From IMG/VR virus record IMGVR_UViG_3300045988_130366: a DNA stretch of 64,000 nt; one strand, written 5' to 3'. The position numbers and the translations under genes were made by a program. The notes beneath the pieces are model-generated. The model made no database searches. It was not told the origin of the DNA and saw only the letters and a program-made list of their open reading frames with translations. This DNA is from a virus. Below are positions 12,230-55,507 of the stretch, in pieces. Every line of letters starts with the position of its first letter. Position 1 is the stretch's first letter.

Positions 12230-12407
12230 TCACATATTAGAGCGTTATTTTTAACCTTTATTTGGAAATTTGCTCCGCAATTAATTGAAGATGGATATAT
12301 TTATGCGGCAGTTCCTCCACTTTATAAAGTTACACAGGGAACTAAAATTACTTATCTAAAAGATGATGCGGCTCTTGAGGAATTTAGAAAGACAGCTAAA
12401 AAGTCTT
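12230..12407 (+). CDS. gyrB: DNA gyrase subunit B, exon 2 (SHIRALFLTF…GYIYAAVPPLYKV…TAKKS)
   Basis: Canonical GyrB PPLYK region; ORF 12227-12433 of the six-frame track = this exon plus read-through into intron 2. Confidence 0.75.
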
Positions 12408-13464
12408 TTGAGCTGGGTCGTATGAAAGGGTAAGAGATAGTCTGGCCCTTATCCACTTTTCCTCTAATCAGAGGGGTTATTATCTTAGATAATAGCTAAC
12501 GAGGCAGTCTTCAAAATATTTTGGGTATTTCAGGAAATCCTGAAATGGATAAAACTTAAATATTCTTGGAGATAATCTCGTGGGAAAAAACTATAAGAGA
12601 TTATCTTACATTTTATTATGTGAGGTATTCAATATGATAGGAATTTATAAGATAACAAACAAAATTAATGGAGATGCTTATATTGGACAAAGCACTCAAA
12701 TAGAAGAAAGATTTATAGAACATAAAAATCCTACAAATTGGGCAAGAGAATCTAATAAAAGTCTTTATAAAGCATTTATTCAATTTGGATTACAAAATTT
12801 TGATTTTTCCGTTTTAGAAGAATGCAAAAAAGAAGAATTAAATGATAAAGAACAATATTGGATTGGATATTATAGTACATATCCTAATCAATATAATATG
12901 ACTCCAGGAGGACAATTTAATGCAGGTGAATGTCATCCAAGTCATAAATTAACTGAAAAGGATGTGATTGATATTAGAACGAGATATAAAAATCACGAAA
13001 GAAAAAAAGACGTTTATTTATTATATGCTCATTTAATTGGGGAATCTGGCTTTCATAAAATTTGGAATGGTTCAACATGGAAAACAATAATGCCAGAAGT
13101 TTATACAAAAGAAAATAAAGATTTTCATGCTCATAATACTTCAAATGTAGGTTCTAAAAATGGAAGGTCTAAATTAACAGAAGAAGATGTTAAAAATATT
13201 CGCTTAAGAAAGAAAAATGGAGAGCAGTTATCTTCCGTTTATAATGATTATTCTGACAAATTAACTTATAAATCTTTTGAAAATGTTTGGTCTTATAGAA
13301 ACTGGAAAAAAATTATAGTTTAAGCCTGTATCGACTATTCCCTTTGTCGGGAAGTAGAAATACTATTGATACGTATTTCAAAAAGGTGGACATGATGAAG
13401 GCAGTTAATACGTTAGCCGGAGTGAAGAAATAGTCAGTACCAATGGTGACATTGGAGTAATACG
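12408..13464 (+). mobile_element. group I intron (gyrB intron 2) carrying GIY-YIG homing endonuclease ORF
   Basis: Splits …KKS|LGEMDP… (GyrB YKGLGEM motif restored on splicing); 3' core GCCTGTATCGACTATTCC…CTATTGATACG…AATAGTCAGTACCAATGG…AATACG omega-G. Confidence 0.7.
12580..13323 (+). CDS. GIY-YIG homing endonuclease (intron-encoded)
   Basis: GIYKITNKINGDAYIGQS…ERFIEHK motif. Confidence 0.85.
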   Translation: MGKNYKRLSYILLCEVFNMIGIYKITNKINGDAYIGQSTQIEERFIEHKNPTNWARESNKSLYKAFIQFGLQNFDFSVLEECKKEELNDKEQYWIGYYSTYPNQYNMTPGGQFNAGECHPSHKLTEKDVIDIRTRYKNHERKKDVYLLYAHLIGESGFHKIWNGSTWKTIMPEVYTKENKDFHAHNTSNVGSKNGRSKLTEEDVKNIRLRKKNGEQLSSVYNDYSDKLTYKSFENVWSYRNWKKIIV

Positions 13465-13652
13465 TAGGCGAGATGGACCCGTCCGAAATGGCTGAAACAG
13501 TTATGAATCCAGAAACCAGAACTCTTAAACAAATATGTATGGAAGATGCAGAAGAAGCTGCTAAAACTTTCATGGGATTGATGGGTGAGTCGGTTGTTTA
13601 TAGAAAGAAATTTATCGAAGAGAATGCATGGAGAGCAAATATTGACGTATAA
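13465..13652 (+). CDS. gyrB: DNA gyrase subunit B, exon 3 (C-terminal LGEMDPSEMAETVMNPETRTL…FIEENAWRANIDV*)
   Basis: Unmistakable GyrB C-terminus; total spliced length 1875 nt = 624 aa. Confidence 0.75.
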
Positions 13653-13748
13653 TGATGCAATGTATCTGGCCGTTGGAGTTGAAGACGGCTGGATACATGT
13701 AACTCCAAAAGTGTGGAAGGAATATTTAAAAGCTAAAGAGGTTATTAA

Positions 13749-14108
13749 ATGGAAGCAAAAATATTTGAATTTGTACCAGAAGAGTCAGAACACTTTGAAT
13801 CCCAATTTTTAAAATGGTATGATGCGGGTAAACCTAAAAATAATTTTAATGAGGCTTATGATTATAGTGCAATAACTCAATTCCTTATATGGGAATATGG
13901 ATTATCAGATGAATCATATGATGAACCTCGTAGATGGAATCAAATTGTAGAAGGAATTGTTTGTATTAATGGACGCTATTTTTCTGTTTGTTACGACAGA
14001 GGTTTAACAGAAATGCAAGAAGATTATTATGACTTTGATGATGATATTACTGAAGTTGAAAAACGCACAGTTTTAAAAGAGGTAACAGAATGGAAGAAAA
14101 AAAGATAA
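13749..14108 (+). CDS. hypothetical protein
   Basis: ORF with RBS AAAGAGG. Confidence 0.45.
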   Translation: MEAKIFEFVPEESEHFESQFLKWYDAGKPKNNFNEAYDYSAITQFLIWEYGLSDESYDEPRRWNQIVEGIVCINGRYFSVCYDRGLTEMQEDYYDFDDDITEVEKRTVLKEVTEWKKKR

Positions 14109-40520: not shown

Positions 40521-41816
40521 ATGGAGGGATACAATATGTTAGAAGTTCAAAAACGAAATGGTGATATTGTCCCATTTGATAAAGAAAAAATTATTGATGC
40601 AGTAAACAGAGCAATGATTGAAGTAGATAAAATCCTTTATGAGACAGATACTTCAGAAGATATTGCTACTGAAATTGAAGAAATGGCTAAACGCTCTAAG
40701 ACAACTATTTCTGTAGAAACTATTCAAGATTGTGTAGAAGATTTATTAATGCAATCTGAAAGAAGAGATGTTGCAAGAGCGTATATTCGTTATAGATATA
40801 AACAAGAAGCAAAGAGAGAGCATGAGGCAGTTTTTGTTAAAACTTATAGTGAAAAATTGGAAGCCCGCAATGTTCAAAATCAAAATGCTAATGTAGATGA
40901 ACACTCTTTTGGCGGACGTATGGGTGAAGCAAGCTCAGTTATGACAAAGAAATATGCTTTAGATTATATTGTATCTAAAATGTCAAGAGATAATCATTTA
41001 AACAATGAAATTTATATTCACGATTTAGATAGTTATGCTGTTGGAATGCATAATTGTTTGTCATTACCTATAGATGATTTACTTAGAAATGGTTTTAATA
41101 CTCGTCAAACTGATGTTCGTCCTGCTCAATCTGTTAATACAGCTTTTCAGCTTTTGGCAGTATTATTTCAGTTACAATCATTACAGCAGTTTGGAGGAGT
41201 ATCTGCTACTCACTTAGATTGGAGCATGGTTCCTTATGTTCGTAGAAGTTTTTATAAGCATTTCTTAGATGGCATTAAATATTGTCAAAAAGGTCAGATG
41301 CTTGGATTAGCTGGAACTTATGAAGATTTTGATTTATCTAATGCAAAAGAGGCGTGGATTAAAGCTGATGCTTCTATTAATGATGATGTATTTGTTAGAA
41401 ATGAAGCAGCTTATCAATATGCCGTAGATATGACAATAAAAGAAACTTATCAAGCTGTAGAAGGAATGTATCATAATCTTAATACATTACAATCTCGAAG
41501 TGGAAACCAGTTACCTTTTACTTCTATTAACTATGGTACATGTACTTTACCAGAAGGAAGATTAGTAACAGAGGCTTTATTAAATGTATCTATTAAAGGT
41601 ATTGGAAAGCTTCATAAAACTTCTATTTTTCCTTGTGGAATTTTCCAGTGTATGAAAGGAGTCAATCGTGAAGAAGGAGACCCAAATTACGATTTATTTA
41701 AACTCGCATTACGTTCAACCGCCACAAGACTGTACCCAAATTATGCTAATGTCGACTGGTCTGGAAACGCAGGATATGACATCAACGACCCTCGTACCTA
41801 CTTCTCTACAATGGGT
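40521..41816 (+). CDS. nrdD: anaerobic ribonucleoside-triphosphate reductase NrdD, exon 1 (ATP-cone … YFSTMG)
   Basis: ATP-cone VQKRNGDIVPFD, IYIHDLD…HNC, ends at …TMG just before conserved radical-loop Cys (cf. E. coli SPMG|CRSF). Confidence 0.8.
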
Positions 41817-42706
41817 AAGCGAAAACTCAGCCCATTTAAAATCTTTTGAACTGTGCTAACAGGTGTTTATATATTCTAATATATAGGCTAACGGTTAGGT
41901 CTTAATGACTTTGCAGTTTGTTGTTAAGATGAGACCGTGCTAAGATTCATTATAATATTCACACATAGAAGGAGGCTATATGTGGATATATAAAATAACA
42001 AATATTCAAAATAATAAAGTTTATATTGGTCAAACAATACGACCAATAAATCAAAGATTTCATCGGCATTTGAATGATGCTATCAATAATATTTTAGATA
42101 CACACTTTGCCAGAGCAATTAGAAAATATGGTAAAGATAATTTTATCATAGAAGAAATTGATACCGCTCAAACTCAAGATGAATTAAACCAAAAAGAACA
42201 ATATTGGATTAGATTTTATAATTCAGTTGAAGAAGGATATAATGAAACAGATGCAATATCTAAGTGCGGGGGTAATACATATCGTTCTAAAACTGAAGAA
42301 GAGATGGAAATTATCAAAGAAAAAATTCGACAAACAAAAATAGGTACTAAAAACCCTATGGCACGAAAAATTAAACGAACAAACATTATTACTAATGAAG
42401 TAGATATATTTAATACTGTTATTAGTTGTGCTAAAGCTTGTGGAATTAAAAATGGTAAAACATCTATCTCAACAAGATTAAATGGACAAATAAAAAGTCC
42501 TTATAAAAATACTTGGATTTTTGAATATTATAATGAATAAAGTGTATCGACTATCCCTGATGAATGTATGGGAGTAGGGACGGAGATAAGCACCGTCGTT
42601 GTTTTAGGAAACGAAGCAACTGAGAACCGAAGCGGAAGACAACTCTATTTACTTTTAAATAGAATGATAATATAGTCAGTGCTGATGGTGACATCAGATA
42701 AACACG
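41817..42706 (+). mobile_element. group I intron (nrdD intron 1) with GIY-YIG homing endonuclease ORF
   Basis: Core GTGTATCGACTATCC…; 3' end …ATATAGTCAGTGCTGATGG…AACACG omega-G; splicing joins MG|CRTANGYDINGFGQLKDGRGN (cf. MGCRSFLGVWENENGEQIHDGRNN). Confidence 0.75.
41980..42540 (+). CDS. GIY-YIG homing endonuclease (intron-encoded)
   Basis: MWIYKITNIQNNKVYIGQT…RFHRH motif. Confidence 0.8.
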   Translation: MWIYKITNIQNNKVYIGQTIRPINQRFHRHLNDAINNILDTHFARAIRKYGKDNFIIEEIDTAQTQDELNQKEQYWIRFYNSVEEGYNETDAISKCGGNTYRSKTEEEMEIIKEKIRQTKIGTKNPMARKIKRTNIITNEVDIFNTVISCAKACGIKNGKTSISTRLNGQIKSPYKNTWIFEYYNE

Positions 42707-43225
42707 TGCAGAACTGCCAATGGGTACGATATTAACGGTTTCGGTCAGTTAAAAGATGGACGTGGAAATATTTGTCCTGTAACAATTATTTTACCTACAT
42801 TAGCAATGGAAGCTAAACAGAACTTTATGTCTCAATATGCTTTAACTGGCGAAGATGCAAAAGAAGCTTTTGCAGTTGAATATTTCATGACTCTTTTAGA
42901 TGAAAAAATTCATCAGGCAAAAGATATGTTGATTGAACGCTTCGATTGGATTTGTTCTCAGGATGCTTCTGCCGCAGTCTTTATGTATGAGAATGGCACA
43001 ATGAAGGGGTATATTCCAGAGGAAGGAATAAGAAGCGCATTAAAACATGGAACTTTAGCGGTAGGTCAGTTAGGACTCGCTGAGACTCTTCAAATTCTTA
43101 TTGGCACAGACCATACGACTTCAGAAGGAATGAAACTGGCTAAAAGAATTGAACAGTTATTTAAAGATAGATGTGCGGAATTTAAAGAAGAATATAAGCT
43201 TAATTTTGGTGTATATTATACTCCT
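42707..43225 (+). CDS. nrdD: NrdD exon 2 (CRTANGYDING…ILPTLAMEAK…VYYTP)
   Basis: Matches E. coli NrdD DGRNNLGVISLNLPRIALEAK block; ends at …YYTP (cf. LYSTPSENLC). Confidence 0.75.
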
Positions 43226-44198
43226 AAACTTTTCGGATTGGGAGTCGCACAAGTGATTGTGTGAAAAAACAACTCTGTTAAACGGGCAATCGTAATAAGA
43301 TGATAAGAGAGACTAAACCTGTAATAAGGCAAGTTAATCCCGTAGGGTAAATTCATTGGACACAAGTTTTCAGTCGTGTATAATAAAAATTCATATAATA
43401 TAGAAGGAGAGTGAATTTTTTTATGGCACGTAGAAAAATGACAGATAAATTAATTAAAAGAAGTCAAATTAATGAAGAAATACGATTAATTAATGGAAGT
43501 GAAACTGATTATATTTCTTCAAAAGGTAATATTTATAAAGATTATGGAAATGATTTATTTTATCCCAAAGCAAATTTTATAAATAAAAATAATGGATATT
43601 TATATTCCAGTATAACTTATCCAGAAGGACAAAGACAAAGAAGAGTGCATATTTTAGTTGCAGAAGCTTTTTTGCCTAATCCAAATAATTATACAGTAGT
43701 AATGCATAAAGATAATAATAAAGCAAACCCTGAAGTATCTAATCTTGAATGGGGGACTAATTCAAAAAATACTAAAGATGCTTATAAAGATGGTCTTGCT
43801 AAAAATGATAAAAGCTGGGATGATAATCAATCAATTCATATTTGTAGTTTTGATTTACAGGGCAACCTATTAAAGATGTATGGCTCTGTAGGAGAAGCTT
43901 CAAGAGAATTACACGTTACAAAAACAACAATATTAAATCAATGTAATCACAATGTAAAAACAAAACCTCGTTGTGGATATTGGTTTAGATACTTGACTGA
44001 ATACAAAACCAATGGATTTGTTCTCTAACGACTATCGAAAACATAGTTATAAAAGAAATATTTATAATGAAGAAGTGAGTAGAGTAGGATATTATATCCG
44101 AAAGACAGAGCTCTTATTATTTGGTAATAGGATAATAAGATGATAATATAGTCTAATCCCCTTTTTTATGAAATATCGGGAAACCGAGGGTTCGAATG
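43226..44198 (+). mobile_element. group I intron (nrdD intron 2) with HNH-type homing endonuclease ORF
   Basis: 3' end …AATATAGTCTAATCC…GGGTTCGAATG omega-G; joins YYTP|AENLCYK. Confidence 0.7.
43411..44028 (+). CDS. HNH-family homing endonuclease (I-HmuI-like, with AP2-like DNA-binding C-terminus)
   Basis: …VHILVAEAFLPNPNNYTVVMHKDNNKANPEVSNLEWGT… HNH_3-type motif; RBS GAAGGAG. Confidence 0.65.
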   Translation: MNFFMARRKMTDKLIKRSQINEEIRLINGSETDYISSKGNIYKDYGNDLFYPKANFINKNNGYLYSSITYPEGQRQRRVHILVAEAFLPNPNNYTVVMHKDNNKANPEVSNLEWGTNSKNTKDAYKDGLAKNDKSWDDNQSIHICSFDLQGNLLKMYGSVGEASRELHVTKTTILNQCNHNVKTKPRCGYWFRYLTEYKTNGFVL

Positions 44199-44717
44199 GC
44201 CGAAAACCTTTGCTATAAAGCTTTAAAGAATTTTAAAGCAAAATATGGAGTAATTGAAAATGTAAGTGATAAAGAGTTTTTTACTAATTCAATTCATGTT
44301 CCAGTTTGGAAAGAAATGTCTCCATTTGAGAAGATTGATATTGAGTCTCAATTAACCGGTTATTCATCTGCGGGATGTATTACTTATGTTGAATTAGATT
44401 CTGGTATTAAAAACAATCTTGAAGCATTAGAGCAAATTGTAAATTATGCTATGGATAAAGACATTCCATATTTTGCAGTTAATGTACCAAACGATACATG
44501 TCTTGAGTGCGGATACACAGATGAATTTAATGATAGATGTCCTATCTGCGGAAGCACTCATATTCAACAGCTTAGAAGAGTTACTGGATATTTAACAGGA
44601 AATTATAAAACTGCTTTTAACCTTGGTAAGCAAGATGAAGTTGAGCATCGTGTTAAACATGGAGGAAAAAGAGAATGGGCGCAGATAAAACCTGGCACGA
44701 CAAAGAAGAATACTTAA
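44199..44717 (+). CDS. nrdD: NrdD exon 3 (…ENLCYK…Zn ribbon CLECGY…CPICG…glycyl-radical RRVTGYLTG…)
   Basis: C-terminal Zn ribbon and glycyl radical motif RVxGY; spliced total 2334 nt = 777 aa. Confidence 0.8.
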   Translation, partial: AENLCYKALKNFKAKYGVIENVSDKEFFTNSIHVPVWKEMSPFEKIDIESQLTGYSSAGCITYVELDSGIKNNLEALEQIVNYAMDKDIPYFAVNVPNDTCLECGYTDEFNDRCPICGSTHIQQLRRVTGYLTGNYKTAFNLGKQDEVEHRVKHGGKREWAQIKPGTTKKNT

Positions 44718-47579: not shown

Positions 47580-47954
47580 ATGTACACTTTAATTATAAAT
47601 AATGGCGAATTACAATGCCATATTAAAAGCTTTACAGAGGGCTTAGAATTAAAAGACTTACCAGATAATTCTGGTAAGAAAGAAACTACAGCGGCTTTAT
47701 ATATTACTACTTATATCTCCGCAGAGGATGGTGAAGGAGTAAATACTTTTGATAATATTAGTTTAGTAGATTTTCTTCCATATTTTAAAGTTGAAAATTC
47801 TATCAGCAATATAACTATAAAAGATGGAGAAAAAATAGTTTTTGAATCTACTAAATATACATCTATTTCAAATGCAAAAGGAGATTATGACCAAACCGCT
47901 GAAACTCCAGAATATTATATAGACATTTCTTTTCAGACAAACCCAAGACTTTAA
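47580..47954 (+). CDS. hypothetical protein
   Basis: RBS AAAGGAGAGAG. Confidence 0.45.
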   Translation: MYTLIINNGELQCHIKSFTEGLELKDLPDNSGKKETTAALYITTYISAEDGEGVNTFDNISLVDFLPYFKVENSISNITIKDGEKIVFESTKYTSISNAKGDYDQTAETPEYYIDISFQTNPRL

Positions 47955-47968
47955 AGAGAGGTGATTGA

Positions 47969-49210
47969 ATGGCAAGAATAGAATATACAGGTAAGCCAAT
48001 TCAAGCCTCTACTATTAATGATTATTATAGAAGATTAGATGCTATTAGAACTTGGAATGGTAGATATTCTGCTATTTCTAATCGAGGAAGCGTTGGCGCT
48101 GGTGTTAAAATCACCAGCGCGCAAGTTATGAATGAAATTTTTAAAAGTGTTGTAGATACAAAAAATACTGTTTCATTTGTAAATGGCGTTTCAATTTTAG
48201 TTCCTATTGGAGTTACTCAAGGTAGTTCCGCAATTGGAAAAAAATCTATGGCTCAAATTGAAAAAAGTATTGGAATGATGGAACAAGCTTGTCGAGAGCA
48301 TTTTTCAAGTAAACGTAATGGTTTTAATAGTTCCAATTATGGTATTTTCGGAAGTTTTAGTTCTAATAGGTCTGGATTTAATGGTACTAATAGAACTTCT
48401 AATAATACAAGCTTCAATGTAATTGATAATAATTCTAATAGAAGCGGATATTTTAATGGTCATAGAAATGGTTACTGTGGTGGTAACAGAAGTAGTAATA
48501 ATGCTACTAATAGAAGTGGTTATAATAATGCTTTTAGAAACGGATATCATCATACTTTTAATAGTGGATTTTTTAGTACTAAATGGGCATCTAATGATGG
48601 TTCAAATTTTAGTGCTTTTGGAGATAATAGTGCTAAGTTTTCAAAAGTTCATAATGGTAATAAAAGTGGATTTGCAACTGGAAAATACCATCATCATTAT
48701 TCTTATTGGGTATTTAATTGGGCTGGAAATGGAAATAAAGACGTTCAATTAACAGGTAATGCTATTAAAAGAGGTAATTTTGATGGACATAATGCTTCTA
48801 AATTTTCTGGAAATGGAACAAATAGCACTAATAGAACTACTGTGAATCATGCTAATAGAAGTCCTTTTCATAAAGGTGGTTATACTGCAAATAATGATAC
48901 TAAATATACAGGGCATACAATAAGTTGTTCTGGAAATAATGGTAGTCATTTTTCCAGAGTAGGTACTTCATGCGTAGGAGATAACGCTTCCAATTATTCT
49001 GGAAACGCTACTGGATATTCAAGCTTTTTTACTTCTAATTGTCCTGTTAATCATGCTACGAATGATGCCAGTGTAAATACTTGTCCAAGTAATTTCTCTG
49101 GAGTATTTAGTGGTAATTATAATGTTGTTTGTCCAAGTAATTTTAGTAATGTTGATAGAAAATGCTTTACAGTTCATAGTAGTTATACTGTAGAAGGTGT
49201 TGATTTTTAG
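47969..49210 (+). CDS. Asn/Ser/Gly-rich repetitive protein with C-terminal Cys repeats (CPxNxS modules); candidate substrate of downstream radical-SAM enzymes
   Basis: ~110-aa ordinary N-domain then ~300 aa low-complexity (N 20%+, dozens of N-x-S/T sequons; repeats NRSGFNG / NRSGYFNG / NRSGYNNA; C-terminal CPVNHATN…CPSNFSGV…CPSNFSNV). Confidence 0.55.
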   Translation: MARIEYTGKPIQASTINDYYRRLDAIRTWNGRYSAISNRGSVGAGVKITSAQVMNEIFKSVVDTKNTVSFVNGVSILVPIGVTQGSSAIGKKSMAQIEKSIGMMEQACREHFSSKRNGFNSSNYGIFGSFSSNRSGFNGTNRTSNNTSFNVIDNNSNRSGYFNGHRNGYCGGNRSSNNATNRSGYNNAFRNGYHHTFNSGFFSTKWASNDGSNFSAFGDNSAKFSKVHNGNKSGFATGKYHHHYSYWVFNWAGNGNKDVQLTGNAIKRGNFDGHNASKFSGNGTNSTNRTTVNHANRSPFHKGGYTANNDTKYTGHTISCSGNNGSHFSRVGTSCVGDNASNYSGNATGYSSFFTSNCPVNHATNDASVNTCPSNFSGVFSGNYNVVCPSNFSNVDRKCFTVHSSYTVEGVDF

Positions 49211-49236
49211 ATATATTTAAAGAGTAAAAGGAGTCA

Positions 49237-50664
49237 TTGATGATAGAGAATAATGATAAAATTTATTTTACAAATATAACATTATTTACTACAGCTTTAT
49301 GTAATCTTAATTGCGGATATTGTTATATTTGTAAAGATGCTACTGGATGTTTAAAACAAATAGATGATGACCTTGCGAAAGATTTTGAAGAAGGAAATCA
49401 AATTAAACAGGTATATGATGTAGATCCAGAAGCAGATAAACATATTAATCATATTACTTTATGGGGAGGAGAGCCTTTCCTTCATCTGGAACGTTTTATA
49501 GACCATTTTGAAGAATACTTAAATGCTTTTCCAAACTTTACTGAAATAGATACTTCAACAAATTTTACTCTTCCAAATCAAATTGAATCTTTAAAGAAAA
49601 TGTTTGATGCAATTATTAAACATTATCATGGTAATAAAAAATTTCATTTTGATCTTCAGGTCTCAATTGATGGGCCTGAAGAGATGAATGATTTTGGAAG
49701 AGGTAAAGGAGTTACTCAAAAATTCTTAAAGAATTTTAGAGATTTATGTGAATTAGAATTTGACGATTCTAAAATTGATTTATTTGTTCATACTAAACCA
49801 ACTTTTTCAAAACCTACATTCCATTTTGTAGATACACCAGAGAAAGCATATGAATGGTTTGAATTTTTTGATAAAGAAATGTATCAGTATTATAAAAATA
49901 GAAAAACTAAAAAATGGTTTTTCTTGCCATGTCTTTTTAATTATGCAACTCCAGCAGAATGGACAAAAGAAGATGGACTTGAAGTGGCAAAAATCTATCG
50001 TTCAATTCAAGAAGTAACACCAAAAATAAAACAATTGGATGGATGGATTCCAAACTATGAAACATATATTCCAGGTGTAGAATTTTTATTAGGTAGATTA
50101 AAAGATGATAATTCTTTTAATAAAAAAAAGTGTTTAGATTGTTCTAAACCATTCTGCGGCGGAGGGTGTGGTTCATTTTCTCATGTAGTAGTTCCTATTC
50201 ATGATGGTAAATATACTATGTGTCATAGAGGTATGTTTGATGATTATGTTGATTATCATAACAATATGAAAGACCATGCTGATATGAATGGACTTGCCGC
50301 AAAATATGTTCAAACAAATAATGAATCTGCTTGGATTTATGATAAAGACCAATTCTTAAATCTTAAAAAGACTTTTGATAATCTTATTTTATATCCTCAT
50401 CAAATTTTCTATACAGATTATGTTAAGTTTGTATATGAATATGCAAAAGCAGGTATCATTGATGAAAAATGGACTGATATGAGTAAGATTGATAAAACGG
50501 TAGCTATTTTCGTTGATAAATCATGTTGTTTACAAGATTCATATATTATTACTGGCTCTTGGATAACATCAAATCCGTTAGAAATTCCATTGTGGTATAA
50601 TGGAGCTATGGATGTAGTTGAAGAAGAAATTGACAGAATAATGGCGGAAAGAGGTATAGTATGA
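49237..50664 (+). CDS. radical SAM enzyme with C-terminal SPASM-like domain (anSME/peptide-maturase-like)
   Basis: CNLNCGYC (Cx3Cx2C), GGEP, C-terminal CLDCSKPFCGGGC (Cx2Cx4Cx3C). Confidence 0.75.
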   Translation: MMIENNDKIYFTNITLFTTALCNLNCGYCYICKDATGCLKQIDDDLAKDFEEGNQIKQVYDVDPEADKHINHITLWGGEPFLHLERFIDHFEEYLNAFPNFTEIDTSTNFTLPNQIESLKKMFDAIIKHYHGNKKFHFDLQVSIDGPEEMNDFGRGKGVTQKFLKNFRDLCELEFDDSKIDLFVHTKPTFSKPTFHFVDTPEKAYEWFEFFDKEMYQYYKNRKTKKWFFLPCLFNYATPAEWTKEDGLEVAKIYRSIQEVTPKIKQLDGWIPNYETYIPGVEFLLGRLKDDNSFNKKKCLDCSKPFCGGGCGSFSHVVVPIHDGKYTMCHRGMFDDYVDYHNNMKDHADMNGLAAKYVQTNNESAWIYDKDQFLNLKKTFDNLILYPHQIFYTDYVKFVYEYAKAGIIDEKWTDMSKIDKTVAIFVDKSCCLQDSYIITGSWITSNPLEIPLWYNGAMDVVEEEIDRIMAERGIV

Positions 50665-52055
50665 CATTTCAAGAGCAGCAAGATTTACTTTTAGAAAATT
50701 ATTTATTTAGATATGATAAAGATGAAGCTTCTGTTGAATTTATCATCACATCTATATGCAATCAAAAATGTGAGTATTGTTATTTATATAGATATGGTAA
50801 CGAGATGTATCCTCCAGAAGCTAATAAAAAAGAAAACATTCTTAGAAATTTAGCATTGTTATTAGATTGGTTAGATGAGAATGGATATAAATATACAACC
50901 TTTGATATTTTTTCAGGAGAATTTTTTCAGATTCCTTATTGGGAAGAAATTTTGAGTGTTTTTTATGAGCATCAAATAAACACTCCTAATATTCCATCAA
51001 GAGATTTTGTTATTCCTACAAATATGTCTTTTCTCATGGACGAAGAGAAAACTGCAAGAGTTGAATATTGGATAAATAGGGTTAGAAATGATACAAAACA
51101 TTTTAATGGCTTTTGGTTGAGCGCTTCGGTAGATGGACCAACAGAATTAGAATCTGTTGAAAGAGGATTGAGAAACGGTCAAACGAAACAAGATTTATTC
51201 TATGATAAATTTTTTAAGTTTATTGCGAAGTATTCTTTTTCTTGCCATCCTATGATTACAAAAGAATTCGTTAAAGATTATAAACGTAATTATGATTGGT
51301 GGATTGATAATCTTATTAAATATAATGCTACCTTTAAAAAAGAAAATGGATATGAAGTATGCTCAATTCCAATGATGTTAGAGGTTAGAAATGCAGAACA
51401 ATGGGATAAAGAGTCTTTACAGAATTATAGAGATTTTCTTTTCTATGTAGCAGAAAAAGATTTGAATACACTTCATAAAGGAGATTTAACTGATTTTGCA
51501 TATCATATGGCAGATAACTTCTCTGATGGAATGATGAATATTGGAACATATAATCATGTACAGCCATATATATTAGCCCTTCCAGAAGTACAACATAGAA
51601 TGCCATGTTCAATTCAAGGCGGTACAATTTTCAGAGTTGGAGATTTAGCAGTCGTACCTTGTCACAGAACTTGCTATCCAGATAAAGTTTATGGATTCCT
51701 TGAATTAAATGAAGATAAAACTAAAATTGTGGGCGTTTATGGAGAAAATCCTATGCTGGCATATAAGATTAAAACCATTAATCAGAATCGTTCTTTTATG
51801 AAATGTGCGGGCTGTCCTATTAAAAGCTTTTGTATGAAAGGCTGCTTAGGAGCACAATATGAAGATAGAAAAGAATTATTTTGTGCTATTGATGAAGTGT
51901 GTGAAATGTTTAAAACTAAGTATCGTACTGTTAATGATATAGCTGAAAAATATGGCATTTATGATATTATTTTAAATGATTTAAAAATCTCAAAAGAGAG
52001 AAGGGAGTTCATAAAATATGCAAGAGATATTATCAACAGATGCTTGTATGACTGA
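50661..52055 (+). CDS. radical SAM enzyme with SPASM domain, paralog of upstream gene
   Basis: CNQKCEYC, C-terminal CAGCPIKSFCMKGC (Cx2Cx5Cx3C canonical SPASM); ATGA overlap with upstream. Confidence 0.75.
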   Translation: MTFQEQQDLLLENYLFRYDKDEASVEFIITSICNQKCEYCYLYRYGNEMYPPEANKKENILRNLALLLDWLDENGYKYTTFDIFSGEFFQIPYWEEILSVFYEHQINTPNIPSRDFVIPTNMSFLMDEEKTARVEYWINRVRNDTKHFNGFWLSASVDGPTELESVERGLRNGQTKQDLFYDKFFKFIAKYSFSCHPMITKEFVKDYKRNYDWWIDNLIKYNATFKKENGYEVCSIPMMLEVRNAEQWDKESLQNYRDFLFYVAEKDLNTLHKGDLTDFAYHMADNFSDGMMNIGTYNHVQPYILALPEVQHRMPCSIQGGTIFRVGDLAVVPCHRTCYPDKVYGFLELNEDKTKIVGVYGENPMLAYKIKTINQNRSFMKCAGCPIKSFCMKGCLGAQYEDRKELFCAIDEVCEMFKTKYRTVNDIAEKYGIYDIILNDLKISKERREFIKYARDIINRCLYD

Positions 52056-52701
52056 TGAGAATGTAGAAGTTTCTATTTTTGATTTAACTCAAGACATTAT
52101 GTTTAAAAAGCAATTTGCATTAATAGATGAATTAGATTTTAGACTTGGCAAAGTTAATGATGAAGATGACGTACTTGAATCAGCCAGGTTAAAAATTTAT
52201 TATATTTATTATTTTATGCTTGATGATAAAGAAAAAGAGTATTTCACTCATATAAAGAATTTTATTATTGCATCTAATAATAAGTTAATTAAACGAATTA
52301 AAAATAGCACTGTTGAAGGCTTCCTTGATGAAGATACAAATACCATTGAAGAAGTTCATTTAAACAAACTGTTTTTAGTTCTTTTGAAAGAATACGCTCC
52401 AGAGTTAAGATATACAGATTATAAAGATGATGTTTTATCTAATATAAATCAATATATTTATCTTTTAAATGAAACTTATTTTGATGATTTTAGTTTGTTT
52501 CAAGATAATGTATTATATGGAATTTGTATTGGAAAATCTATAGTTGATTATAAAAAGTTCTTGAGTCCTGCAGAATGGGATAGATTTCAATATAGTTTTT
52601 ATCATTTGTTTTATAGTATTCAAGAATTTCCAACAGACGATGAAATATTAGATATTGAAAAAGATATTGAAAATAAAGTAGACCTTCTTTATGTAAAATA
52701 A
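52048..52701 (+). CDS. hypothetical acidic protein (operon member)
   Basis: ORF overlapping rSAM stop; start uncertain (52018 or 52048). Confidence 0.4.
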   Translation: MTDENVEVSIFDLTQDIMFKKQFALIDELDFRLGKVNDEDDVLESARLKIYYIYYFMLDDKEKEYFTHIKNFIIASNNKLIKRIKNSTVEGFLDEDTNTIEEVHLNKLFLVLLKEYAPELRYTDYKDDVLSNINQYIYLLNETYFDDFSLFQDNVLYGICIGKSIVDYKKFLSPAEWDRFQYSFYHLFYSIQEFPTDDEILDIEKDIENKVDLLYVK

Positions 52702-52732
52702 TAAGAAGTAAAGAGTAAAAGGAGTATAGTAA

Positions 52733-53524
52733 ATGATTTTTATATTGCCATCTATTTATTATAATTTTGAAGATAATATAAATATTTTAAATATGTATAG
52801 CAATACAGTGAAAATCAAAGGCATTGAGGGTAACTTCCCGTCTAACATTATGTGCGGCGGGATTAACGCCCTTGACACCAGATATTTTGCGCTGTATGAT
52901 GATATTATAGGTTGTGTAAATAGTTATCCAATAACATCTAAAATGTTATTTGTTGATTGCGGCAACCTCTTTCTTAATGAAAAAGAATATCTAAATCGTT
53001 TTGATAAGATATTATTTGAAGAATGGGAAAATAATAATTCTACATATTATGAAATTGCTGATTTTAATTTGATTGATTATGTAGTAAAACGTTATCCTAA
53101 TATTCAAATTGCGTTACATCAAAATGCTTTATTAAAATATAGCTTAAAAGAGATTCAAGATAAAATTGATAGTTGTAAAAATATCAAATACATAATTTTA
53201 CCAAGATGTTATGCTCATTTAAAAATAAAAGGTACTCAAAAAATTTATTTAATGAGTTTTACAAAATGTAAAGATTGTGTAAATTACTGCGATTGTTTAT
53301 TTGAAGAGTCTCATAATATATTGGAATATAGTGGTAATTCTGTCTTTAGAAAATGTACTCAAAGGTTTTATAAAGATGATGATGAGTTCTTTGAAGAATA
53401 TAGAAATATTCCAAAAGATTTCTCATATGTTTTATTTGATAATATTATTCCAGAAGAGACAAATGAATGCTATACATTAATGATTAATTTATTTGAGAGA
53501 GGGCTTAAAAATGATTTATTATAA
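52733..53524 (+). CDS. hypothetical protein (operon member)
   Basis: RBS AAAGGAG. Confidence 0.45.
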   Translation: MIFILPSIYYNFEDNINILNMYSNTVKIKGIEGNFPSNIMCGGINALDTRYFALYDDIIGCVNSYPITSKMLFVDCGNLFLNEKEYLNRFDKILFEEWENNNSTYYEIADFNLIDYVVKRYPNIQIALHQNALLKYSLKEIQDKIDSCKNIKYIILPRCYAHLKIKGTQKIYLMSFTKCKDCVNYCDCLFEESHNILEYSGNSVFRKCTQRFYKDDDEFFEEYRNIPKDFSYVLFDNIIPEETNECYTLMINLFERGLKNDLL

Positions 53525-54509
53525 TTTACCTGGATTTTATGAACACTTTACTTTAAATAAGTTTATTTTAGAATTACATGACACAAATCCTGAATATTTC
53601 AGAGATGGAATTAAGATTGCAACTTTCTTTGGTAATTTCCCATTCTGCACTTGGGATGGCGGCAGAAACTTTCCATTTTATCGTCAAATCACAAAAGAGG
53701 AAATTGAAAAGATTAGAGATTTTTATAAATTCTACAATATTCCTATGAGATTAATTTTTACCAATTCTGCAATCGAAGAAGAAGATTTATATGATCCATT
53801 TTGTAATCTTCAAATGAGGCTGCTTGAAGATGGTAATAATGAAGTTGTTGTAAATTCTCCTCTTTTGGAGCAATATTTAAGAGAGACTTATCCAGATTTT
53901 AAATATATTAGTTCTACAACTAAATGTTTAAATAAGGAAAAATTTCTTAAAGAGCTTCAAAATCCAGATTATTATCAAGTTTGTTTAGATTATAATTTGA
54001 ATAAAAATATGGATATGCTTGAAAACATTCCTCAAGAGTTACGAAGTAAATGTGAATTTTTATCAAATGCGATTTGTCATAGTCATTGCCCTGTTAGAAA
54101 ATCACATTATCTTGACACCAGTAAAACTAATTTAACATATGGCAGACATAAATACAGTATTACCGCAAGATGTCAAATTAAAGGTGGTATTAATGACCCT
54201 GATACTCTTGGAAAACAAAACAATTTGACTTGGGAAAATATTCAAGAATATAATTCAATGGGATATAAATACTTTAAATTTGAAGGAAGAACATTGCCAA
54301 GTGCAGATATTTTTGCTAATTATTTATATTATTTATTTAAACCTGAATATATCCCAACTATTGTAAGTCAATCTTCATATGTACCAGGAATATTTTTTAA
54401 TAATCCAAATTCTCAGTTTTATTTAGAGATGGTAAAAAGAACCGATGCTTCATTAGAAGCTGATAATGGCGTATATGCAAATGAATGTGTAATGAGTTGG
54501 CCATTCTAA
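53493..54509 (+). CDS. hypothetical protein (operon member, weakly similar to upstream gene)
   Basis: ORF overlapping upstream by 32 nt. Confidence 0.45.
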   Translation: MREGLKMIYYNLPGFYEHFTLNKFILELHDTNPEYFRDGIKIATFFGNFPFCTWDGGRNFPFYRQITKEEIEKIRDFYKFYNIPMRLIFTNSAIEEEDLYDPFCNLQMRLLEDGNNEVVVNSPLLEQYLRETYPDFKYISSTTKCLNKEKFLKELQNPDYYQVCLDYNLNKNMDMLENIPQELRSKCEFLSNAICHSHCPVRKSHYLDTSKTNLTYGRHKYSITARCQIKGGINDPDTLGKQNNLTWENIQEYNSMGYKYFKFEGRTLPSADIFANYLYYLFKPEYIPTIVSQSSYVPGIFFNNPNSQFYLEMVKRTDASLEADNGVYANECVMSWPF

Positions 54510-54578: not shown

Positions 54579-55163
54579 ATGCTGGAAACAATTGGATCAA
54601 TTGTCTTAAAGTATTGGGTTGAACTTATTTTAGGTTTGATTGTAACTGGCGGCGGTTTTTTAATAAAACGTTATTTAAGACTTGAAAAAGAAGAACGTCA
54701 AAGAGAGCAAAAAGAATATTTTGATAATGTGCTTAAAAAAATTCAAAGTGAAAATCAACAGGTATTAAAATCTTTAGAAGAAGAACATGATAAGATGAAT
54801 CAAAATTCTGAAGATAAGTATGATGAAATTAATACCAAGGTTGATCAAGCTTTAGAAGCAGGTCGTGAAGAATCTAAATCTGATGATGCGGTTCTTGAAA
54901 AAGAAATTTCAGCATTGGAAAAAAATATTACAGCTTTGACCGCAGGCGTTTTATCAATACAAGGAAAAGAGTTTAGAAATAATTGTAGAAAACTTTTAGC
55001 TGAAGATCATGTTATTACTCTTGATGAATGGGAAGAATTAGATAAAGACCATATGGCTTATAATGGGTTAGGTGGTAATCATAAAGGTGACCATTTATTT
55101 TCATTAGTAAAAAAGAAAGTCGAAGCCGGCTTTGCAGAAGACCAACGTCCAAAAGAAGAATAA
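54579..55163 (+). CDS. membrane-anchored coiled-coil protein
   Basis: N-terminal TM helix, E/K-rich coiled coil; RBS AAGGAGGG. Confidence 0.45.
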   Translation: MLETIGSIVLKYWVELILGLIVTGGGFLIKRYLRLEKEERQREQKEYFDNVLKKIQSENQQVLKSLEEEHDKMNQNSEDKYDEINTKVDQALEAGREESKSDDAVLEKEISALEKNITALTAGVLSIQGKEFRNNCRKLLAEDHVITLDEWEELDKDHMAYNGLGGNHKGDHLFSLVKKKVEAGFAEDQRPKEE

Positions 55164-55207
55164 AAAAGAGGGGATAGAATTAAATTCTATCCCCTATTAT
55201 TTTTTAT
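55164..55207. terminator. bidirectional rho-independent terminator between convergent transcription units
   Basis: GGGGATAGAAT-TTA-ATTCTATCCCC hairpin flanked by A6 and T7. Confidence 0.8.
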
Positions 55208-55507
55208 CTTAGAAAAAATCTTATTGGTTATATCAATTACCTCTTGTCCATAAGTAGCGAGTAAATCAGCTAATAACTCCTCTTGGTCATAAGTTAATTG
55301 AATATCATAGCTAAACATTGCGGCGTGTGTTATTTCATGGCATAAAACTTTTTTAATTTTTTCGAGAGAAAGTTTATTATTAATATAGATTTTCTTTGTA
55401 TCATCAACGCAAGCTCCAAGAGTATAAGAGCCATCTTTCTTTTTAAGCATTGGGTGATATGGGGATACAAAGACGACTCGCCAATTATCCCCATTAATTT
55501 TAAACAT
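55187..55507 (-). CDS. putative HExxH zinc metallopeptidase
   Basis: …VLCHEITHAAMF… motif in ~100-aa protein. Confidence 0.5.
   Translation of the reverse strand: MFKINGDNWRVVFVSPYHPMLKKKDGSYTLGACVDDTKKIYINNKLSLEKIKKVLCHEITHAAMFSYDIQLTYDQEELLADLLATYGQEVIDITNKIFSKIKNNRG

Follow-up and report, generated by a model that had tools for sequence, protein, structure and literature searches.

What could a phage gain from two radical-SAM enzymes encoded side by side, and on which molecule would they act? This question is raised by a 64,000-nucleotide stretch of DNA from a large uncultured phage (IMG/VR record IMGVR_UViG_3300045988_130366; hereafter the window), in which the two enzyme genes directly follow the gene for a protein with a long disordered tail. 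A preliminary description had considered positions 47969-54509 as an undescribed unit of six tightly coupled genes, with the upstream repetitive protein as the only plausible substrate of the enzymes.

Organization of the gene cassette

The window holds a conserved gene cassette for a disordered-tail protein (g1), two radical-SAM enzymes (rSAM1 and rSAM2) and two U32 proteins (g5 and g6), accompanied by small genes. Its features, and those at its downstream end, are as follows:

47580-47954, plus strand: g0, small conserved protein of 124 aa directly upstream of g1
47969-48304, plus strand: N-terminal domain of g1 (residues 1-112), predicted three-helix domain
48305-49183, plus strand: low-complexity core of g1 (residues 113-405), disordered, N/S/G/T-rich
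49184-49207, plus strand: conserved C-terminal motif of g1, YTVEGVDF
49237-50664, plus strand: rSAM1, radical-SAM enzyme, CxxxCxxC at nt 49300-49323
50661-52055, plus strand: rSAM2, radical-SAM/SPASM enzyme, CxxxCxxC at nt 50757-50780
52018-52701, plus strand: g4, small acidic protein; 227 aa with the start at 52018, 217 aa with the ATG at 52048 as start
52733-53524, plus strand: g5, 263 aa, U32-like paralog of g6 with a CxxCxxxCxC cluster
53493-54509, plus strand: g6, divergent Peptidase_U32-family TIM-barrel protein of 338 aa, or 332 aa from the ATG at 53511, the likely true start
54579-55163, plus strand: 194-aa protein, last gene of the plus-strand unit
55169-55195, both strands: bidirectional terminator-like hairpin, 12-bp stem with T-runs on both strands

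The six open reading frames were confirmed, those of g1 (47969-49210), rSAM1 and rSAM2 coding for 413, 475 and 464 aa, respectively. Their tight coupling also stands, with an ATGA overlap at the rSAM1/rSAM2 junction (50661-50664), good ribosome-binding sites 5′ of g1 and rSAM1, and no terminator-like site found within the gene block, but the unit has to be extended to the conserved upstream g0. It ends at the hairpin, which also ends a convergent unit on the minus strand, and a small gene resembling HExxH metalloproteases is found close by (55187-55507, minus strand). All cassette genes are under purifying selection, with dN/dS from 0.05 to 0.31 (g6 0.05, rSAM1 and rSAM2 0.08 each, g5 0.12, g4 0.18, g0 0.20, g1 core 0.31). 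The nucleotide-metabolism genes of the window (NrdD, NrdG, dUTPase, RuvC) run in the same direction as the cassette, the structural genes are on the other strand, and a 1711-aa tail fibre is located 4 kb from the cassette.

The two radical-SAM enzymes

The CxxxCxxC cluster noted in both enzymes is invariant among 33 homologs of rSAM1 (C22/26/29) and 32 homologs of rSAM2 (C33/37/40). The enzymes are indeed paralogs, but remote ones, sharing 23% identity over 150 aa (E 3e-4), and the HMM searches proposed for them in the preliminary description gave a divided result. Against the Pfam Radical_SAM model (PF04055, cut-off 29.5 bits) rSAM1 scores 33 bits, above the cut-off, and rSAM2 23.2 bits, below it, while the SPASM model TIGR04085 is matched by 26 of the 32 rSAM2 relatives, but only at 16.8 bits, below the cut-off of 27, by the window copy. 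A SPASM region had been assigned to both enzymes, and this holds for rSAM2, where the seven canonical cysteines (C316, C334, C382, C385, C391, C395 and C414; nt 51606-51902), including a Cx2Cx5Cx3C motif, bring the cysteines invariant in 32/32 homologs to ten. It does not hold in full for rSAM1. The Cx2Cx4Cx3C stretch taken there for a SPASM motif is poorly kept among homologs (C299 in 2/33, C302 in 4/33, C307 in 23/33), only C311, C329 and C431 are invariant among the auxiliary cysteines, and the auxiliary region looks twitch-like, with one cluster.

The top PDB profile match of rSAM1, a family of 80 clusters, is the cyclophane synthase ChlB (9gm3, E 4.7e-7), aligned over the N-terminal core only, and that of rSAM2 is CteB (5wgg, E 2.3e-8), aligned over the core as well as the SPASM region. 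Both families match peptide-maturase models almost exclusively, with DynA, YhhB and AmcB matched by 33/33 rSAM1 relatives, QhpD by 31/32 and PapB by 29/32 rSAM2 relatives, all of these matches being far below the curated cut-offs and mostly confined to the radical-SAM core. Judging from the CteB, QhpD and PapB matches, the rSAM2 family resembles thioether-forming SPASM maturases. None of the cassette proteins gave a match to a RiPP recognition element (PqqD-like), and no rSAM1 or rSAM2 homologs were found in 50,697 GenBank phage records.

The candidate substrate protein

The N/S/G-rich composition originally reported for g1 is correct (N 18%, S 15% and G 12% in the core, together with 19% F/Y/H/W and 7 Cys), but its designation as a Cys-repeat protein was overstated, with 8 Cys in total. 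Likewise, the three CP[SV]N[FH][SA] modules are present (residues 358, 372 and 388; one is missing in close relatives), but the "several" N-x-x-C contexts are only two, and DNA-level tandem repeats are minimal. The N-terminal domain, with helices at residues 13-29, 51-67 and 87-114 in the AF2 prediction (pLDDT about 70) and no fold match found, terminates at the invariant Cys108 of the junction (nt 48290-48292). Homologs of g1 comprise 25 representatives; Y20, R22, T64, F70, E98, E105 and C108 are invariant in 19-21 homologs, and the "C-R-N" junction is kept even in distant members, making this part of the protein a candidate recognition ("leader-like") domain.

The core, disordered throughout in the AF2 model (pLDDT <50), evolves fastest in the cassette (76-81% identity vs 90-95% for the enzymes), and its dN/dS is still that of a constrained coding sequence. 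Among close strains, the invariant fractions are 1.0 for W, 0.81 for F, 0.73 for G and 0.71 for C, with N (0.56), T (0.48) and S (0.43) less conserved. Aromatic and small residues form a periodic pattern, and NxS/T occurs 25 times vs 12.1 ± 2.6 in shuffled sequences. The core is proposed as the site of radical cross-linking, and aromatics beside small polar residues, not Cys, are the universal trait of the substrate family. At the C-terminus, the YTVEGVDF motif is invariant across 13 close strains; most close homologs end in VEG[ILV]D[FL] and distant ones in the related TVIDI(T/M)N.YK.

Conservation of the gene order in related loci

rSAM2 comes after rSAM1, usually immediately, in every one of about 36 non-redundant related loci, whose identity ranges down to 24%. 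The gene directly upstream of rSAM1 usually codes for a relative of g1, else for another low-complexity repeat protein, and the iterated HMM of the g1 N-terminal domain has matches in this position in about 20 loci. An N/S/T/G-rich ORF was found upstream in 19 of 39 cassettes, vs 4% of background ORF segments, and four loci (L034, L040, L044 and L103) have no obvious low-complexity upstream ORF. Since the flanking genes vary among the loci, common descent of the region as a whole does not by itself account for the linkage; rSAM1 still comes next when the g1 homolog is fused to LamG. The upstream CxxxC-repeat protein of L017 matches TIGR04117, "radical SAM target protein" (E 1e-6), YcaO adjoins the cassette in L019 and L097, and L018 and L019 carry GT2/GT8 glycosyltransferases, all of which would fit a protein substrate. 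The initial proposal of g1 as substrate is supported by the conserved gene order, the L017 target protein and the likeness of the rSAM2 family to thioether-forming maturases. By reading of the sequences, tail-fibre-like genes are situated directly upstream in L023, L030, L028 and L032, and an ORF of L046 resembles the rSAM-GT2 fusion of L018.

Small genes and the U32-like pair

The candidate accessory or partner protein g0 adjoins g1 in the window clade and, by HMM, in L013, L015, L018, L019 and L023, and most other loci have an ORF of 100-150 aa in its place; it gave no match in Pfam, NCBIfam or PHROG. Homologs of g4, a candidate partner or chaperone, follow rSAM2 in the window clade, L013, L015, L017, L018 and L019, and ORFs of 80-240 aa, often acidic, occupy its position in many other loci. 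The three downstream proteins were at first reported to be devoid of recognisable motifs, which remains true for g4, with no family match in Pfam, NCBIfam and PADLOC searches, but not for g5 and g6.

These two are paralogous, divergent U32-family TIM barrels. Their pairwise similarity is weak (E 0.01), the iterated HMMs of both converge on the same 29 ORFs, and they are adjacent in 10 non-redundant loci. For g6, with 371 homologs, PF01136 is matched by 13 of 28 relatives (P0084 and P0186 above the Pfam cut-off), the AF2 model is confident (pLDDT 88.3, pTM 0.86), only the U32 peptidase Mk0906 (5d88, E 3.7e-7) matches significantly in the PDB, and the top BFVD match is a phage "Peptidase" (E 8.9e-12). 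With invariant C164, C195, C199 and C227 (nt 53982-54173), g6 is probably an Fe-S protein. Characterised U32 members such as UbiU/V, TrhP and RlhA serve in hydroxylation and not as proteases, the substrates of known U32 enzymes being tRNA, rRNA or ubiquinone precursors. U32 genes are optional, being absent from most rSAM-pair loci, and a bacterial-looking contig carries a member of the U32-like family by itself, so the pair may be functionally separable. The F+W+H content of the cores has a median of 0.16 with U32 genes vs 0.07 without them (Mann-Whitney p = 0.0002, n = 12 and 12, with kinship of the loci ignored).

Proposed function and alternative explanations

Because the gene order is conserved across highly divergent phage loci, g1 is taken as the substrate of the enzymes, and we estimate at about 0.62 the probability that this is a phage-encoded RiPP-like maturation cassette, in which g1 would be cross-linked by the radical-SAM enzymes to give a product that is possibly a virion-surface or fibre protein. 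The N-terminal domain, up to the Cys108 junction, would dock the enzymes, and the disordered core of roughly 300 residues would receive many intramolecular cross-links, each at a cost of 2 H. Going by family resemblance, rSAM1 could form aromatic C-C (cyclophane-type) links at aromatic-x-x motifs and rSAM2 Cys thioether links, with g0 and g4 acting as helpers comparable to HxsD of the HXS system described below. The g5/g6 pair, which occurs mainly with F/H/W-rich cores, may represent a tailoring module, most plausibly one that hydroxylates aromatic residues without O2. As to its role, our leading guess, held with lower confidence, is that the stapled product would resist proteases and be associated with the virion surface or fibre, in line with the tail-fibre-like genes upstream of some cassettes and the tail fibre near that of the window. 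On the main reading, a virus would be chemically stapling its own protein by a system that lacks description in any cultured phage, and we found no paper describing a phage twin radical-SAM cassette. Points that speak against this reading are the low scores of all named maturase matches, the lack of a match to a RiPP recognition element, the shared orientation with nucleotide-metabolism rather than structural genes, the separability of the U32 pair, and the few loci without an obvious low-complexity ORF upstream.

The earlier remark that no described equivalent was known thus holds for the GenBank phage records, but a bacterial analogue exists. The closest one described is the HXS antiphage system, in which the adjacent radical-SAM enzymes HxsB and HxsC are accompanied by the small partner HxsD, and the effector HxsA combines a folded domain with repeats and depends on a modified SHRSS motif (PMC13128918). 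Two adjacent radical-SAM enzymes, the small g0/g4 and the domain-plus-repeat g1 are the common traits, whereas the gene order differs (D-B-C-A in HXS vs g0-g1-rSAM1-rSAM2-g4). Membership in HXS itself was rejected, with HxsB/HxsC scores of 18-20 bits vs cut-offs of 370 and 268.

It is conceivable, though unlikely, that matured g1 is a non-structural, HxsA-like effector, involved in superinfection exclusion (blocking DNA entry of competing phages) or acting on the host envelope. Besides the same part list, the L015 g1 contains SHRS(S/D/G) five times and the window g1 SNRSG twice, but such short matches could arise by chance in S/N/R/H-rich sequence. The HxsB and HxsC models are matched weakly by 18/33 rSAM1 and 12/32 rSAM2 relatives, again far below the cut-offs, and g0, g1 and g4 do not match the HxsA or HxsD models. 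Co-transcription with early/middle-type genes in the window would suit an effector; on the other hand, neither a peptidoglycan-binding domain nor a signal peptide is apparent in g1, the cores span 100-350 residues and are mostly not basic, the gene order is not that of HXS, and PADLOC gave no relevant match.

It is improbable that the radical-SAM pair, with the U32 pair, modifies a nucleic acid, nucleotide or cofactor, g1 being an unmodified structural protein syntenic by chance. The location after nucleotide-metabolism genes in the window and L013, the substrates of the known U32 enzymes, and glycosyltransferases near some cassettes, which could modify DNA, would agree with it. However, a g1-type gene stays beside rSAM1 despite rearranged neighbours and a replaced substrate type, SPASM/twitch enzymes of similar sequence are peptide and protein maturases, YcaO co-occurs, and no likeness was found to the QueE-type or thymidine-hypermodification radical-SAM context, except a weak QueE-like PHROG match on the core.

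Least probable of all is a multi-core poly-precursor, in which the U32 "peptidases" or a different protease would release many small peptides carrying modifications, or a cofactor of peptide origin along the lines of PQQ or mycofactocin: recurring short motifs in the cores (FNSS >15 times in L018; 9-residue SNGTCSNGSKS-type units in L028 and L032), the historical annotation of U32 proteins as peptidases, kept in the Pfam name, and the nearby HExxH gene speak for it, but the hypervariable cores have no regular cleavage sites, the conserved C-terminal motif and N-terminal domain suggest that g1 works intact, most loci are without U32 genes, characterised U32 members such as UbiU/V are hydroxylation factors, and the cassette has no transporter or immunity gene.

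The inclusion of the 194-aa protein (54579-55163) in the maturation cassette is uncertain. It adjoins the cassette in the window, its homolog in L013 (5737-6360) is on the opposite side, upstream of g0, and it has only weak matches in PHROG and PADLOC; by reading, it appears to carry an N-terminal transmembrane helix and a coiled coil.

Organization of the cassette and selection on its genes

The gene block is a real and conserved cassette which, judging from its sequence, probably represents a protein-maturation system. In this respect the preliminary description, which had proposed a phage operon for protein or peptide maturation, largely stands; it erred in treating rSAM1 as a SPASM enzyme, in giving cysteine a central place in the substrate, and in its view of the genes it regarded as unknown. 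An ORF listing returned all six genes that it had described (g1 to g6 in the list below) at the coordinates given there, and the small protein g0 directly upstream belongs to the same unit.

Genes of the cassette (window coordinates)
47580-47954, + strand: g0, small protein, seventh conserved gene of the unit
47969-49210, + strand: g1, putative substrate, 413 aa
49237-50664, + strand: rSAM1, radical-SAM enzyme, 475 aa
50661-52055, + strand: rSAM2, radical-SAM enzyme, 464 aa
52018/52048-52701, + strand: g4, small acidic protein, 227/217 aa
52733-53524, + strand: g5, U32-like protein, 263 aa
53493/53511-54509, + strand: g6, U32-like protein, 338/332 aa

The window is a phage contig with a GC content of 30%, and a single metagenome yielded near-identical IMG/VR contigs with lengths of 118-196 kb. 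An ATGA overlap joins rSAM1 and rSAM2, g1 and rSAM1 are each preceded by a ribosome-binding site, and no terminator-like hairpin was found inside the gene block, the + strand unit being ended by a bidirectional terminator-like hairpin at 55169-55195. In comparison with seven diverged strains, dN/dS ranges from 0.05 to 0.31 across all genes, including the low-complexity part of g1, and therefore all of them are real, constrained coding sequences. Searches of Pfam, NCBIfam, PHROG and PADLOC gave no family match for g0 and g4, and an Rfam scan of the window found no RNA family.

The two radical-SAM enzymes

In both enzymes a CxxxCxxC motif, the signature of the SAM-binding 4Fe-4S cluster, begins within 40 residues of the N-terminus and is kept in all homologs, as C22/26/29 in 33 diverse rSAM1 sequences and as C33/37/40 in 32 diverse rSAM2 sequences. 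The PF04055 model is matched above its cut-off of 29.5 bits by rSAM1 (33 bits) and just under it by rSAM2 (23.2 bits), many homologs of which carry the domain. Both proteins can be assigned on these motifs and profiles to the radical SAM superfamily, within which they are remote paralogs only, with 23% identity over 150 residues.

Seven further cysteines of rSAM2 (C316, C334, C382, C385, C391, C395 and C414) are each present in 32 of 32 homologs and include Cx2Cx5Cx3C, which corresponds to the canonical SPASM pattern, in which seven cysteines hold two auxiliary clusters. The SPASM model TIGR04085 matches 26 of the 32 family members (best E 5.2e-7), the window rSAM2 itself scoring 16.8 bits, under the cut-off of 27. 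Furthermore, the alignment of the family profile with CteB (5wgg; E 2.3e-8) spans the core as well as the SPASM region, and the models of QhpD and PapB are matched by 31 and 29 of the 32 members, respectively.

The preliminary description had also placed rSAM1 among the SPASM enzymes, an assignment that we do not retain. Its Cx2Cx4Cx3C is poorly kept (C299 in 2 and C302 in 4 of 33 homologs), and no SPASM model of Pfam or NCBIfam matches it. Only C311, C329 and C431 are invariant auxiliary cysteines, with C307 present in 23/33, and the twitch-domain model NF033640 is matched below its cut-off by 30/33 members, on the radical-SAM core (residues 14-191). Such a pattern indicates a single auxiliary cluster in a twitch-like arrangement. 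The best solved relative of rSAM1, over the core only, is ChlB (E 4.7e-7), a multiple cyclophane synthase (PMC12912966), and models of the aromatic cross-linking maturases DynA, YhhB and AmcB are matched by all 33 members.

For both enzymes, every score against a named maturase family is far under the curated cut-off, and they represent new families in the peptide-maturase neighbourhood, belonging to no named one. No RiPP recognition element (PqqD-like) was detected with Pfam and NCBIfam in g0, g4, rSAM1 or rSAM2, and single-sequence PDB searches with the two enzymes gave nothing useful. One rSAM2 homolog of 809 aa (P0298) has Pfam matches to Hint, Vint and LAGLIDADG, by which it is a radical-SAM gene with an intein.

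The putative substrate

Searching with residues 1-115 of g1 retrieved 25 representatives, nearly all of 170-400 aa and with a common layout of a conserved N-domain, a hypervariable low-complexity core, and a conserved C-terminal VEG[ILV]D[FL]. Invariant residues of the N-domain are Y20, R22, T64, F70, E98, E105 and C108. AlphaFold predicts that this domain forms three helices (pLDDT about 70) and that residues 114-407 are disordered, and a fold search with the model returned generic helix bundles only (E>3). Matches of two N-domain homologs (P0326, P0339) to TPR and LapA were dismissed as artefacts of repeats and composition.

The pooled cores of g1-type proteins are composed of S (16%), N (14%), T (11%), G (9%), F (9%), H (5%), Y (5%) and C (4%), and are nearly devoid of I, L, M and E. 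Aromatic-x-x motifs are plentiful in them, and the aromatic residues have small residues at positions +/-2. Since TRF finds two tiny arrays only, the repetition of g1 is compositional, and g1 was not accepted as a true tandem-repeat protein. In 13 close strains the core evolves faster than any other segment, with 76-81% identity compared to 90-95% for the enzymes, and F, W, G and C are the residues best conserved within it. Positive selection on the core was considered and rejected, as its dN/dS of 0.31 points to relaxed but purifying selection. Two features emphasized previously proved to be less general: cysteine, taken as central to the substrate, is absent almost entirely from one homolog (P0343), and of the three CP modules (CP[SV]N[FH][SA]) described at the C-terminus, one is missing from the close strains.

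Glycosylation of the core is possible, because the cassette of some relatives is accompanied by GT2 or GT8 genes (GT2/GT8 genes in L018 and L019, and in L046 an ORF that on reading resembles the rSAM-GT2 fusion of L018). N-x-S/T sequons are, in addition, enriched approximately 1.5-2-fold in nearly all g1-type cores, and the window core (48305-49183) contains 25 of them, compared to 12.1+-2.6 in shuffled sequences. N-glycosylation as the main modification, for which the roughly twofold enrichment would speak, was nevertheless not adopted, as the cassette in the window is devoid of a glycosyltransferase and the enrichment may stem from the periodicity of N and small residues. Formylglycine formation of the anSME type was rejected, since g1 lacks the (C/S)-x-(P/A)-x-R motif and scores for TIGR03942 are far under the cut-off.

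The U32-like pair

The last two genes of the block, formerly listed among proteins with no recognizable motifs, are U32-like according to fold matching and profiles. The AF2 model of g6 (pLDDT 88.3) has a single PDB match at E<=0.001, the U32 peptidase Mk0906 (5d88; E 3.7e-7, probability 1.00), and its top BFVD match is a phage "peptidase". We found 371 homologs of g6, and 13 of 28 sampled matched the Peptidase_U32 model PF01136, two of them passing the cut-off (26.2 and 23.0 vs 22.4 bits). The window g5 and g6 gave no match to PF01136 or any other Pfam family at E<=0.1, the g6 profile retrieved nothing among PDB sequences, and hhalign of the g6 family with E. coli UbiU and UbiV was not significant (probability below 1%). 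By its structural model, g6 has the U32 TIM-barrel fold, and its four invariant cysteines (C164, C195, C199, C227) could well bind a 4Fe-4S cluster. Iteration of the g5 and g6 profiles led to one shared set of ORFs, which makes g5 a paralog of g6.

U32 genes, as a pair or singly, are present in 13 of about 36 non-redundant cassettes (about a third); their usual place is directly after rSAM2/g4, and in L018 they immediately precede g0. The median fraction of F+W+H in the core is 0.16 in cassettes bearing U32 genes and 0.07 in those without them (p = 0.0002, uncorrected for kinship). A stand-alone g6-like U32 protein was also observed at 4728-5627 of L121 (MT835898.1), a high-GC, bacterial-looking contig deposited as "Bacteriophage sp." in which ORF translations read as pyruvate kinase, nitroreductase and TRAP transporter genes; members of the U32 subfamily thus occur outside the cassette as well.

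Conservation and distribution of the cassette

Related loci were collected with profiles of the enzyme families (77 viral loci and 22 from genome collections), and more were added by exact protein look-up. Wherever a true rSAM1 was present (about 36 non-redundant loci, with identities down to 24%), an rSAM2 gene came after it, usually as the immediate neighbour. The upstream gene is a relative of g1 in about 20 loci according to an iterated HMM, and in most of the remaining ones it encodes a low-complexity protein that shares the "C-R-N" junction and has a C-terminal motif of related sequence. An N/S/T/G-rich upstream ORF is found in 19 of 39 cassettes and in 4% of background segments. The other neighbours vary (nucleotide metabolism, endolysin, tail fibres, glycosyltransferases), and YcaO adjoins the cassette in L019 and L097. 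Where the g1 homolog is fused to LamG, rSAM1 still comes after it, and in a 277-kb relative (L017) the upstream gene encodes instead a CxxxC-repeat protein matching TIGR04117, "radical SAM target protein" (E 1e-6; 28.8 bits, cut-off 50). That such a gene stays upstream despite rearrangement of the neighbours and exchange of the substrate type is the principal evidence for g1 as the substrate. A precursor gene predicted next to its maturase corresponds to the arrangement of RiPP-type radical-SAM maturation systems.

With 80-112 enzyme clusters at 90% identity and contigs of up to 478 kb, the cassette family is not rare, yet it is absent from all 50,697 GenBank phage records, where tblastn of rSAM1 and rSAM2 found no homolog and megablast of the whole block gave no match. 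A literature search on phage rSAM, SPASM and RiPP systems and on U32 with RiPP gave no description of such a cassette.

Several loci show further peculiarities. L050 and L100 each carry two complete g1-rSAM1-rSAM2 cassettes on a single contig, separated by about 6-7 kb, L100 being a 175-kb contig binned as a Clostridium sp. MAG. In L017, the stretch after the cassette (11538-13925) encodes a second paralog of rSAM1 together with a fusion of aldo-keto reductase and ferredoxin, and a further SPASM-like rSAM of 560 aa lies 2 kb upstream. The sole matches in 185,579 species genomes are L097-L103, MAG contigs with 30-34% identity in bins of CPR bacteria, Nanohalarchaeota, Clostridium and Peptococcaceae. 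These contigs are probably of viral origin, in which case the system would reach viruses of very different hosts.

TAG is read as sense in the related phages L015, L019, L027, L029, L038, L043, L046 and L120, and the cassette therefore spans both standard-code and TAG-recoded lineages. In L015 and L019, the cassette genes hold 19-43 in-frame TAGs and zero TAA or TGA.

Relation to described systems

The closest described system is HXS, a bacterial antiphage system of Pseudomonadota with the gene order HxsD-HxsB-HxsC-HxsA (Li et al., Nat Commun 2026; PMC13128918). It combines two neighbouring rSAM enzymes with a small partner and with an effector built of a domain plus repeats, in which SHRSS carries an essential +8 Da modification, and it features five HxS repeats and a peptidoglycan-binding domain as well as export with N-terminal processing (PMC13128918). 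Both systems have an adjacent rSAM pair, a small accessory protein, and a substrate of protein size that consists of a folded domain and short repeats. His/Ser/Arg motifs in the repeats are a further likeness, as would be covalent modification of the substrate, predicted for the cassette; of HxsA-type motifs, only short SHRS-like ones occur, in the g1 of L015. Unlike HXS, the cassette is phage-borne, differs in gene order, has hypervariable cores of 100-350 residues, and includes the added U32 pair. The scores are 18.2 bits for TIGR03978 on rSAM2 (cut-off 370) and 19.9 bits for TIGR03977 on rSAM1 (cut-off 267.9), g0, g1, g4 and six homologs match no NCBIfam model, those of HxsA and HxsD included, and no peptidoglycan-binding Pfam domain was found in the cassette proteins. 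As the HxsA-D models are unmatched, the order is different and a peptidoglycan-binding domain is lacking, the cassette would be HXS-like in its working but is not a member of HXS. Homology of g4 or g0 to HxsD/PqqD was rejected for want of HMM support, and PADLOC gave generic viperin-core matches only.

With the SPASM thioether maturases (CteB/SCIFF, QhpD, PapB), rSAM2 shares the full set of seven SPASM cysteines, but it scores far under their cut-offs, has no N-terminal RRE and would have a much larger substrate, and cysteine is not universal in the g1 family. QhpD itself cross-links a whole protein subunit. The core of rSAM1 resembles cyclophane synthases and triceptide or daropeptide maturases (ChlB, YhhB, AmcB, DynA), and aromatic-x-x motifs abound in the g1-type cores, but the match is confined to the core and below cut-offs, and the C-terminal half is different, with three invariant cysteines. 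CXXX-repeat target systems (TIGR04115/TIGR04117) are resembled by the L017 precursor, which accompanies the same enzyme pair, whereas g1 of the window has no CxxxC repeats, and TIGR04115 scores 22.7 and 18.7 bits on the two enzymes (cut-off 350). The cassette falls within none of the CXXX-repeat, anSME or named maturase families.

As in the U32 family (Mk0906, UbiU/UbiV, TrhP, RlhA), g6 has the U32 fold and conserved cysteines, together with the paralog g5; UbiU and UbiV are also a pair of U32 paralogs, and their type of O2-independent hydroxylase is marked by a 4-Cys Fe-S site in each paralog and by prephenate-dependent hydroxylation. We found no paper tying U32 proteins to RiPP or radical-SAM protein maturation. 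RiPP clusters of prophages encode classical small bacteriocins along with immunity and export genes, and are carried by temperate phages. The cassette differs from them in its protein-sized disordered substrate, in the lack of export and immunity genes, and in its residence in uncultured phages of 120-200 kb. Such bacteriocin clusters on temperate phages are nevertheless an example of phage-carried genes for ribosomal-peptide maturation (bioRxiv 10.1101/2020.10.01.322628).

Proposed mechanism and role

The analysis establishes which genes are present, their cofactor-binding motifs, synteny and selective constraint, and the fold of g6. According to the model that we propose on this basis, the N-domain of g1 would dock the enzymes, and the disordered core would be stapled by rSAM1, acting like a cyclophane synthase, and rSAM2, acting like a thioether synthase. 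The small proteins g0 and g4 could assist, in the way HxsD does with HxsC, and the U32 pair could tailor aromatic residues without O2.

In regard to the role of the product, tail-fibre-like genes read directly upstream in several loci, the LamG fusion, and the 1711-aa tail fibre encoded near the cassette in the window favour a virion surface, in which case this could be a new phage route to robust surface structures. The co-orientation of the cassette with the NrdD, NrdG, dUTPase and RuvC genes in the window and the precedent of HXS favour an intracellular or envelope effector, and if that were HXS-like, phages would wield the same weapon as their hosts.

A far bolder scenario, which we consider quite improbable, is that the U32 pair is the first U32-type O2-independent protein hydroxylase and, with the twin rSAMs, makes of the Phe/His/Trp-rich tail a cross-linked, hydroxylated (DOPA-like/adhesive) polymer on the virion or fibres in phages of strict anaerobes. 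If true, viral structural proteins stapled by enzymes would constitute a new class.

Among ribosomal products, short bacterial peptides are the familiar targets of radical-SAM maturation, and protein-sized substrates are few, QhpC among them. HxsA is a newer one (PMC13128918). The maturation system proposed here would extend this chemistry to viruses, to hypervariable disordered cores of 100-350 residues, and to a fixed enzyme pair with different auxiliary-cluster architectures, in a family whose members occur in TAG-recoded phages and on contigs from bins of CPR bacteria and nanoarchaea. It would also be the first link of U32-family Fe-S proteins to a protein-modification context, offering a testable handle on this poorly understood family beyond quinone and RNA hydroxylation.

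Genes flanking the cassette

A 194-aa protein (54579-55163) adjoins the cassette after g6, and its counterpart in a related locus (L013, 5737-6360) precedes g0. Reading of these 194-207 aa sequences suggests an N-terminal transmembrane segment and a coiled coil, and the protein may be a part of the system. Just across the bidirectional terminator, the - strand encodes a 106-aa HExxH metalloprotease-like ORF (55187-55507; PHROG 1233 / metallo-protease).

Farther upstream, the anaerobic ribonucleotide reductase gene nrdD (40521-44717) is split into three pieces (40521-41849, 42806-43264 and 44196-44717) covering positions 2-265, 297-414 and 415-562 of the Pfam NRDD profile. The pieces are parted by a GIY-YIG ORF (41980-42540) and an HNH ORF (43411-44028), and no group I intron was detected there by Rfam. 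The interruptions look like two insertions bearing homing endonucleases, perhaps introns; L013 has a single intact NrdD of 769 aa.
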